Part shown: in pieces, positions 52,297-53,352 of the stretch
Layout of the letters: every line of letters starts with the position of its first letter
Position numbering within the stretch: the first letter of the stretch is position 1
Source: Lingula anatina
Lineage: Eukaryota; Animalia; Brachiopoda
Length of the DNA: 64,000 nucleotides
Reading direction: 5' to 3'
Assembly (NCBI GenBank): GCA_051362555.1
Contig: CM120647.1
Span: 7,254,001 to 7,318,000, forward strand
The notes under the pieces: generated by a model
The model's input: only the letters and a program-made list of their open reading frames with translations
Told to the model about the DNA's origin: nothing
Database searches by the model: none
Program-made: the position numbers and the translations under genes

Positions 52297-52368
52297 GACT
52301 CCGTGGCGCAACGGTAGCGCGTCTGACTTCAGATCAGAAGGTTGCGTGTTCAAATCACGTCGGGGTCA
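52297..52368 (+). tRNA. tRNA-Trp-derived gene with anticodon TCA (UCA; candidate opal suppressor)
   Basis: 72-nt cloverleaf GACTCCG-TG-GCGCAACGGTAGCGC-G-TCTGA-CT[TCA]GA-TCAGA-AGGTT-GCGTGTTCAAATCACGT-CGGGGTC-A. Anticodon at 52329-52331; intact A and B boxes; T8 Pol III terminator at 52377-52384; 71/72 identical to the tRNA-Trp(CCA) at 57517. Short variable loop, so not tRNA-Sec. Confidence 0.93.
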
Positions 52369-53352
52369 CAGGTTCATTTTTTTTAAATTGTTGGTTGTCT
52401 GATCTATGCAGCCCATTATATCTACGTGATCCCTCCTTATTTCATAGTAATGACAAGTGCATGTCACACTTCTTCGTAGAGTTCTATTATGATTCCTGTT
52501 ATATTTTATTGCAATATTTTTTATTGTTCCTTGCAGCATTCTAACTGTTAAACCATTATTTATAGAGACATTTCCTCTGTATTCATAGAAACATTTTCTT
52601 ATTGTGTAATATGTAAATCATATCATAGCATTGCGTTTTAGGACATCAAATGTATGAAGCAATTCATGAATAAACTGAACTTGAATATAACCGCGATGCA
52701 TTTTCTTCTGTTGTTTTTCTTCAGGGCATTAAATACGTGCCGCACCTGTCGCATTGAGAAGTTCCTCTGCCAAGGAGGTTGTGTTTTCACCTCCGTTTGT
52801 CTGTCTATTGAAATTTTCAGGATAGATCTGAAAAAGCCGTACTGAAAGTGATAATATTTTTGGTGGTTCTTTGTAAGTAACTTATATTAATACCCATGAG
52901 ACTTGACCTGCTTTTTTTAGTAATTACACTGCATGTATAGACTACCGTTTGCTACGAATTTAATCCATGGAAACATTAAAAACATGGAAACAATGCAACG
53001 CATCTAGTAAAAGTACTTTGTGTCTATATAAGCTTGTGAAATTCGAGAAAAATGTCTGTTAAGAAAATCAAGATTCAATTAAAACGTATTCATTTAATTA
53101 GGAAAAATGCAAAGATATCAAATTCAGAAGGGAGCTTGCACTCATCGGTGGGGAATGGTGGGATATTTTTTCCAGAGAAAATGGCCTATGAAATGATTTA
53201 AATACACCCCACTTACCGAACAAAGTAAAGTAGAGTTTTGTAAACCCCCATTTATCATGGTCAAAATATATAAACGTGCTCTCACGCAAAAATACTTGGT
53301 TTCGTCTCTCTTCATTTGTTTGAATGGGGTTAAAAGTCAGAGGTGGGAATCC

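Follow-up and report, generated by a model that had tools for sequence, protein, structure and literature searches.

A complete nuclear tRNA-Trp gene with a UCA anticodon in a tandem duplicate of the brachiopod Lingula anatina

Does an animal nuclear genome carry an intact tRNA-Trp gene whose anticodon matches the stop codon UGA, and, if so, what is such a gene doing there? The question is raised by a stretch of 64,000 nucleotides from Lingula anatina (GenBank assembly GCA_051362555.1, contig CM120647.1, positions 7,254,001 to 7,318,000 of the forward strand), referred to below as the window and used as the frame for all coordinates. An initial annotation made from the letters of the window alone had pointed to a structurally intact tRNA-Trp(UCA) and had proposed several consequences for UGA decoding.

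ARAGORN found two tRNA genes in the 64-kb window, one at 52297 with a TCA anticodon and one at 57517 called Trp with CCA (Table 1). The program labelled the former (52297-52369) as SeC, which is the kind of automatic mislabelling that the initial annotation had foreseen. The Rfam model RF00005 covers 52297-52368 from end to end (69.2 bits, E 5e-13) with no non-standard pair marked, and the resulting fold comprises a 7-bp acceptor stem, 5-bp anticodon and T stems, and a short variable loop. The gene shares the full cloverleaf, A73 and G1-C72 with the cytosolic tRNA-Trp family (determinants as given in PMC9976931) and departs from it in having TCA in place of the CCA anticodon. Identity as tRNA-Sec, already disputed in the annotation, was rejected: tRNA-Sec is defined by 90-101 bases, a 9/4 fold, a long variable arm and G73 (PMC5330540), whereas this gene has 72 bases, a 7/5 fold with its 7-bp acceptor stem, a short variable loop and A73. 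A match to the tRNA-Sec family was likewise absent from the Rfam result for this segment. Taking the assembly base at face value, the gene combines two of the features expected of a natural opal suppressor, namely a UCA anticodon on a non-Sec scaffold and intact Pol III boxes and terminator. The two internal promoter elements correspond to the consensus A and B boxes. The discriminator A73 (52368) and the T8 terminator (52377-52384) are where they had been reported, with the T run beginning 9 bases past the discriminator. Together, the full-length model match and the 71 of 72 bases shared with the CCA paralogue bear out the claim of an intact nuclear tRNA-Trp(UCA) in an animal, and on the assembly sequence 52297-52368 is confirmed as a complete gene of the cytosolic type.

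Table 1. Features of the tRNA-Trp(UCA) locus and its tandem duplicate (window coordinates)
Feature	Position	Strand	Basis
tRNA-Trp gene, UCA anticodon (copy A)	52297..52368	+	Rfam RF00005 full model; paralogue comparison
Anticodon TCA (C34>U at 52329)	52329..52331	+	ARAGORN, paralogue alignment; assembly base
Pol III A box, predicted	52304..52314	+	Same letters as paralogue
Pol III B box, predicted	52348..52356	+	Same letters as paralogue
T8 run, predicted Pol III terminator	52377..52384	+	Read from sequence
Hyper-diverged 20 bases directly 5' of copy-A tRNA	52277..52296	+	9/20 differ, P 0.0002 vs 12% distal
tRNA-Trp(CCA) paralogue (copy B)	57517..57588	+	ARAGORN; Rfam 67.6 bits, full model, no non-standard pair marked
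Tandem duplicate unit A: tRNA(UCA) and ORF with TGA	about 51507..56580	.	Self-BLAST, identity profile
Tandem duplicate unit B: tRNA(CCA) and intact ORF	about 56922..61082	.	Self-BLAST, identity profile
Orphan ORF copy A: 143 codons, Cys-rich, TGA at codon 111, ends TAA TAG	55893..56324	-	ORF comparison
In-frame TGA, TGG (Trp) in copy B, next base A	55992..55994	-	Copy comparison, assembly sequence
Orphan ORF copy B: intact, 145 aa, 10 Cys, Trp at codons 57 and 113	60400..60837	-	ORF comparison

The two tRNA genes belong to a pair of tandem duplicate units, A and B, whose self-BLAST blocks are 67-89% identical; no common coding frame was found in the middle of the units. The duplication, and with it the TGG>TGA gene of unit A, had both been missed by the initial annotation. 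Between the copies the tRNA bodies differ at one of 72 bases, a T for C at 52329, and T5 and T6 runs follow the copy-B gene at 57594 and 57603. Among 275 aligned bases in the distal flanks of the tRNAs, 33 are mismatched (12%), a rate at which 8.6 differences would be expected within the body (binomial P 0.001). The earlier observation that the body is conserved against its surroundings therefore stands at 1/72 versus 12%, with the correction that these flanks are homologous parts of a tandem duplicate and not unrelated sequence. Divergence is higher still in the 20 bases directly 5' of the copy-A gene, in a two-copy comparison that gives no polarity as to which copy changed. A hyper-mutated immediate flank beside a conserved body is described as the mark that transcription-associated mutagenesis leaves on an active tRNA gene under purifying selection, with C>T and G>A as its typical changes (PMC13010820). 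By extension, the hyper-diverged 5' flank and the conserved body suggest that a functional tRNA-Trp gene occupied this locus through most of its past, C34>U being a late event. Gene conversion could also have kept the tRNA bodies alike. We considered and rejected a false duplication of two haplotypes, since the units are about 12% apart and unit-A contigs from the DNA run X3 differ from the window at 3/153 and 4/160 bases.

Each unit also carries one copy of an orphan ORF. Both copies have a hydrophobic N-terminus and many Cys and are predicted to be secreted, the signal peptide being judged by eye; the protein may resemble a cystine knot. It belongs to no Pfam family, and no homologue was found among proteins of 79-254 aa or 255-2000 aa, with 0 among 1.84 billion representatives. 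Likewise, there was no Atlas match, the best PDB sequence match had an E of 0.28, and a single-sequence model (pLDDT 49.8) gave no Foldseek match at E 0.001 and a best structural Z of 3.3. A single metagenomic locus was set aside, its 20 matched residues being taken as chance. Over the 142 codons compared between copies A and B, pN is 0.047 and pS 0.138, the latter close to the divergence of the flanks, and because pN is below pS, as expected under selection, we regard the ORF as a real gene.

The TGA is the sole break in the frame of copy A and is followed by 32 codons with 5 Cys up to the homologous stop. Copy A retains 9 Cys, a Ser-Cys pair present in copy B being gone, and its codon 57 no longer encodes the second Trp. 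All three in-frame TGG codons of copy B are altered in copy A, as seen at the very end of the ORF, where TAA TGG (60397-60402, minus strand) in B corresponds to TAA TAG (55890-55895, minus strand) in A; in both copies a GAG GT donor-like site lies 6 bases past the stop and may mark a 3'UTR intron. Past the TGA, pN is 0.065 and pS 0.263 over 32 codons, a ratio of 0.25 based on tiny counts (5 and 5 changes), and before it the values are 0.042 and 0.108, again on tiny counts. With that restriction, the part of the ORF downstream of the TGA shows no relaxation, which stands against decay. Of all single-base routes from copy B to a stop, Trp TGG>TGA accounts for 4% (2/52), or for 7-11% once transition bias is allowed for, and a TGA of any origin for about 30%. 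Insertion of Sec at this TGA is unlikely, the sister codon being Trp and a SECIS element being absent from the 6 sub-threshold matches of an Rfam scan of 52400-57480.

We compared the region 55670-56690, at 85% likeness, with DNA contigs from runs X1 and X3 and with raw RNA reads from runs X10 and X13 (4 of 19 runs). At position 55992 the entire contig depth reads C, and hence TGG (234.7/234.7 in X1 and 101/101 in X3), in contigs that also drop other true letters. The letter that both window copies share at 56133 is missing from all X1 and X3 depth, which indicates that these contigs lose true paths; for this reason they neither confirm nor refute the TGA and argue only weakly against its being common. 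Further upstream, X1 contigs with a depth of about 20 reproduce pieces of unit A exactly (0 differences over 118, 178 and 103 bases). The contigs contain at least one further paralogue type of the orphan ORF, for a family of at least three types in X1 and X3, and other tRNA-bearing units may lie elsewhere in the genome. With the contigs as outgroup (29 used among 40 contig matches listed, 115 further matches being left out), 6 changes among those listed are specific to copy A. Five affect the protein, namely Trp57>Leu, the loss of the Ser-Cys pair, the TGA and changes at codons 134 and 135; the sixth is silent. To judge from these comparisons, ORF copy A looks like a decaying duplicate. No RNA reads fell on either ORF copy in X10 and X13 (2 of 9 RNA runs, about 6% of each, at 85% likeness). 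RNA depth was confined to 3 of the 30 bins of the region and corresponds to a dispersed repeat, a high-copy element at 55705-55809 that is deep in the DNA contigs and present in the RNA reads.

The remainder of the window has features of its own. A glutamate-cysteine ligase-like gene with a Pfam GCS match is present as two full tandem paralogues (4586-18409 and 21607-29763, minus strand) and as the first exon of a third (2567-2725); the paralogues are about 60-85% alike per exon, and a motif in them departs from the canonical one. Introns of the first ligase copy enclose a Myb/SANT ORF (7161-7565, plus strand) and a DDE_Tnp_4 ORF (11061-11678, minus strand), a gene pair typical of a Harbinger-type transposon. 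An unbroken ORF of 1063 codons (32416-35607, plus strand) resembles a LINE endonuclease and reverse transcriptase and is possibly a young element. A two-exon rhodopsin-family GPCR (41495-42283 and 46124-46486, minus strand), with exons that match a Lingula anatina protein at 95% and 98% identity, is a member of a Lingula-expanded group, its next three matches also being from Lingula. Finally, a dispersed repeat of about 220 bases occurs in four copies (39215-39436, 44393-44614 and 48261-48709) that are 83-91% alike and lie in both orientations.

If the gene is transcribed, its product is predicted to be a charged but weak Trp-inserting suppressor of UGA. An engineered human tRNA, Trp chr17.trna39 UGA (Lueck et al. 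2019, PMC6379413), differs from 52297-52368 at 3 of 72 positions by eye (2, 4 and 5, in the 5' acceptor strand). As reported in that study, this tRNA, the best of its human Trp-UGA set, is UGA-selective and places >98% Trp at UGA, restores about half of the wild-type current at CFTR W1282X in oocytes at high dose, and does not observably alter how ribosomes occupy 3'UTRs in transfected cells; the Trp-UGA family was the weakest among the UGA suppressors. Recognition of human tRNA-Trp depends chiefly on A73; in plants and archaea the anticodon (C34) contributes strongly to tRNA-Trp identity (PMC9976931). Weak suppression, as put forward in the initial annotation, is what the identity role of C34 and the weakest-family engineered analogue would lead one to expect. 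The same cannot be said of the genome-wide UGA read-through also suggested there, given that the engineered tRNA left 3'UTR ribosome occupancy unchanged. Four long ORFs or exons in the window, a small sample, contain 20 TGG codons (10, 8 and 2 in three of them) and 0 internal TGA; with Trp encoded by TGG only, the standard code appears to apply and UGA not to be reassigned. Table 3 of PMC5330540 counts 2 tRNA-Sec genes in L. anatina, together with 34 selenoproteins.

We consider it probable that the gene reflects a recent, tolerated and unselected C34>U change in a redundant tRNA-Trp duplicate, and that it would act as a weak UGA suppressor if transcribed. Tandem duplication of a 5-kb block that contains a tRNA-Trp gene and a gene for a small protein gave rise to the two units, which have since diverged by about 12%, and the tRNA body is unchanged save for base 34. 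The body would long have been under purifying selection, or homogenised, at a locus transcribed by Pol III, until a C>T change of the transcription-associated mutagenesis type struck the anticodon. If the engineered human counterpart is a guide, the U34 tRNA would remain a substrate for charging with Trp by TrpRS yet be a poor competitor of release factor; its cost may then be small and the allele tolerated beside normal copies. The TGA of the ORF would then be one lesion among several in a duplicate under decay and would agree with the tRNA by chance. Further support comes from three nematodes, in which 70-100% of the isotype-switch alleles that segregate have a frequency below 0.5% (PMC13010820). 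Against this account, the ORF shows no relaxation past the TGA (on tiny counts), Trp TGG>TGA makes up just 4-11% of the possible nonsense changes, and the rest of the tRNA body is without decay, so C34>U may be kept and not merely tolerated.

That low share also favours an alternative in which suppressor and target form a linked pair, the UCA tRNA reading the TGA of the unit-A ORF as Trp so that the two are co-inherited and the protein is held at a low or tRNA-controlled level. Both elements lie in unit A, 3.7 kb apart, and codon and amino acid agree: the linked gene has a cognate in-frame stop (TGA at 55994-55992 versus TGG) with an intact frame beyond it and the low pN/pS noted above, and the engineered equivalent was active at just such a Trp>UGA site in oocytes (PMC6379413). 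Nevertheless, we hold this reading to be unlikely, as copy A carries other lesions, the X1 and X3 contigs, which also drop other true letters, have only TGG at 55992, the two RNA runs sampled gave no reads on either copy, intact sister copies leave scant need for rescue, and the tRNA acts in trans. In addition, the base that follows the TGA is A, and an A after UGA makes a less leaky context than C; coincidences at the 5-10% level are frequent when many windows are scanned. In the open-access literature we found no precedent for an animal in which a natural suppressor tRNA is linked to the nonsense gene that it would read. If true, this reading would give an animal a self-contained recoding cassette, with a secreted protein made only where and when the linked suppressor tRNA is expressed.

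The decayed look of the unit-A protein gene and the strength of C34 as an identity element in some eukaryotes (PMC9976931) would also suit a tRNA gene that has only just become a pseudogene in a degenerating duplicate, being silent or giving a product that is uncharged or degraded; with both promoter boxes, the stems and the terminator all intact, A73 as the major human determinant and the engineered equivalent charged (PMC6379413), we find this decidedly unlikely. An assembly error at 52329 would explain why this base is the sole difference from the CCA paralogue, yet the window is without N, the X1 contigs match the unit-A pieces exactly, and mis-mapped reads from other tRNA-Trp copies would be expected to push the consensus to C and not to T, making such an error very improbable. 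UGA targets do exist in a species with this many selenoprotein and tRNA-Sec genes (PMC5330540), as a selected regulator of genome-wide UGA read-through or a competitor of Sec insertion would demand. Such a role is nonetheless highly improbable in view of the single UCA copy within 64 kb, the absence of in-frame TGA from the other ORFs examined, and an engineered Trp-UGA tRNA that caused no observable native-stop read-through (PMC6379413). Finally, import of the tRNA into mitochondria could serve the decoding of UGA as Trp there, much as Leishmania uses an imported, C-to-U edited tRNA-Trp on mitochondrial UGA (10.1101/2023.10.09.561518); two tRNA-Trp genes are tabulated for each of 2 L. anatina mitogenomes (PMC8146825), which leaves no gap to fill, and on these gene counts we rejected a reading that we regard as having next to no chance of being correct.

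The preferred reading, a tolerated C34>U in a redundant duplicate, places the gene in a known kind: it would be a natural nonsense-suppressor anticodon variant. A natural C34T allele of human Trp-CCA-3-3 (rs1046235225) has been catalogued as rare and as a putative UGA suppressor (PMC11212642, Table 1), so the Lingula gene is less singular than the initial annotation had implied. The two share tRNA family, base change and an intact nuclear animal gene; they differ in that the human allele has a frequency of 0.002-0.003%, whereas the Lingula gene has a TGG>TGA gene as its neighbour within a tandem duplicate. The engineered ACE-tRNA Trp-UGA (PMC6379413) shares 69 of 72 bases by eye, including the anticodon arm, and inserts Trp weakly and without global read-through, but it is laboratory-made and over-supplied, three acceptor-stem bases differ, and its activity may be different with Lingula TrpRS and eRF1. 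Anticodon shifts in intact tRNA duplicates are described from flies, nematodes, primates and yeasts (PMC3923123, PMC7919458, PMC13010820). These alloacceptor shifts and isotype-switch alleles likewise leave the duplicate intact apart from a single change in the anticodon; they are sense-to-sense, however, whereas the Lingula change is to a stop-cognate anticodon. With eukaryotic tRNA-Sec the sole likeness is the UCA anticodon (PMC5330540). In Blastocrithidia and Condylostoma a tRNA-Trp(CCA) with a 4-bp stem reads UGA as Trp (10.1101/2023.10.09.561518), the likeness being a cytosolic tRNA-Trp acting on UGA; the Lingula tRNA, by contrast, has a 5-bp stem, a cognate UCA anticodon and the standard code. 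On the same source, the ciliate tRNA-Trp(UCA) invoked as a precedent in the initial annotation fails for nuclear genes. We found no publication on the Lingula gene in the open-access literature, and genome annotations may already list it as Sup or SeC. The name Lingula is absent from the three files of Secmarker supplementary text, the terms tRNA, heterozygosity and tandem are absent from PMC13121700, and PMC10886601 and PMC8244042 added nothing specific.

On the best reading, then, this gene would be a natural counterpart, in a wild animal, of the therapeutic type of suppressor tRNA. With 34 selenoproteins, the species would also offer a useful case for measuring the cost of carrying a tRNA cognate to UGA.
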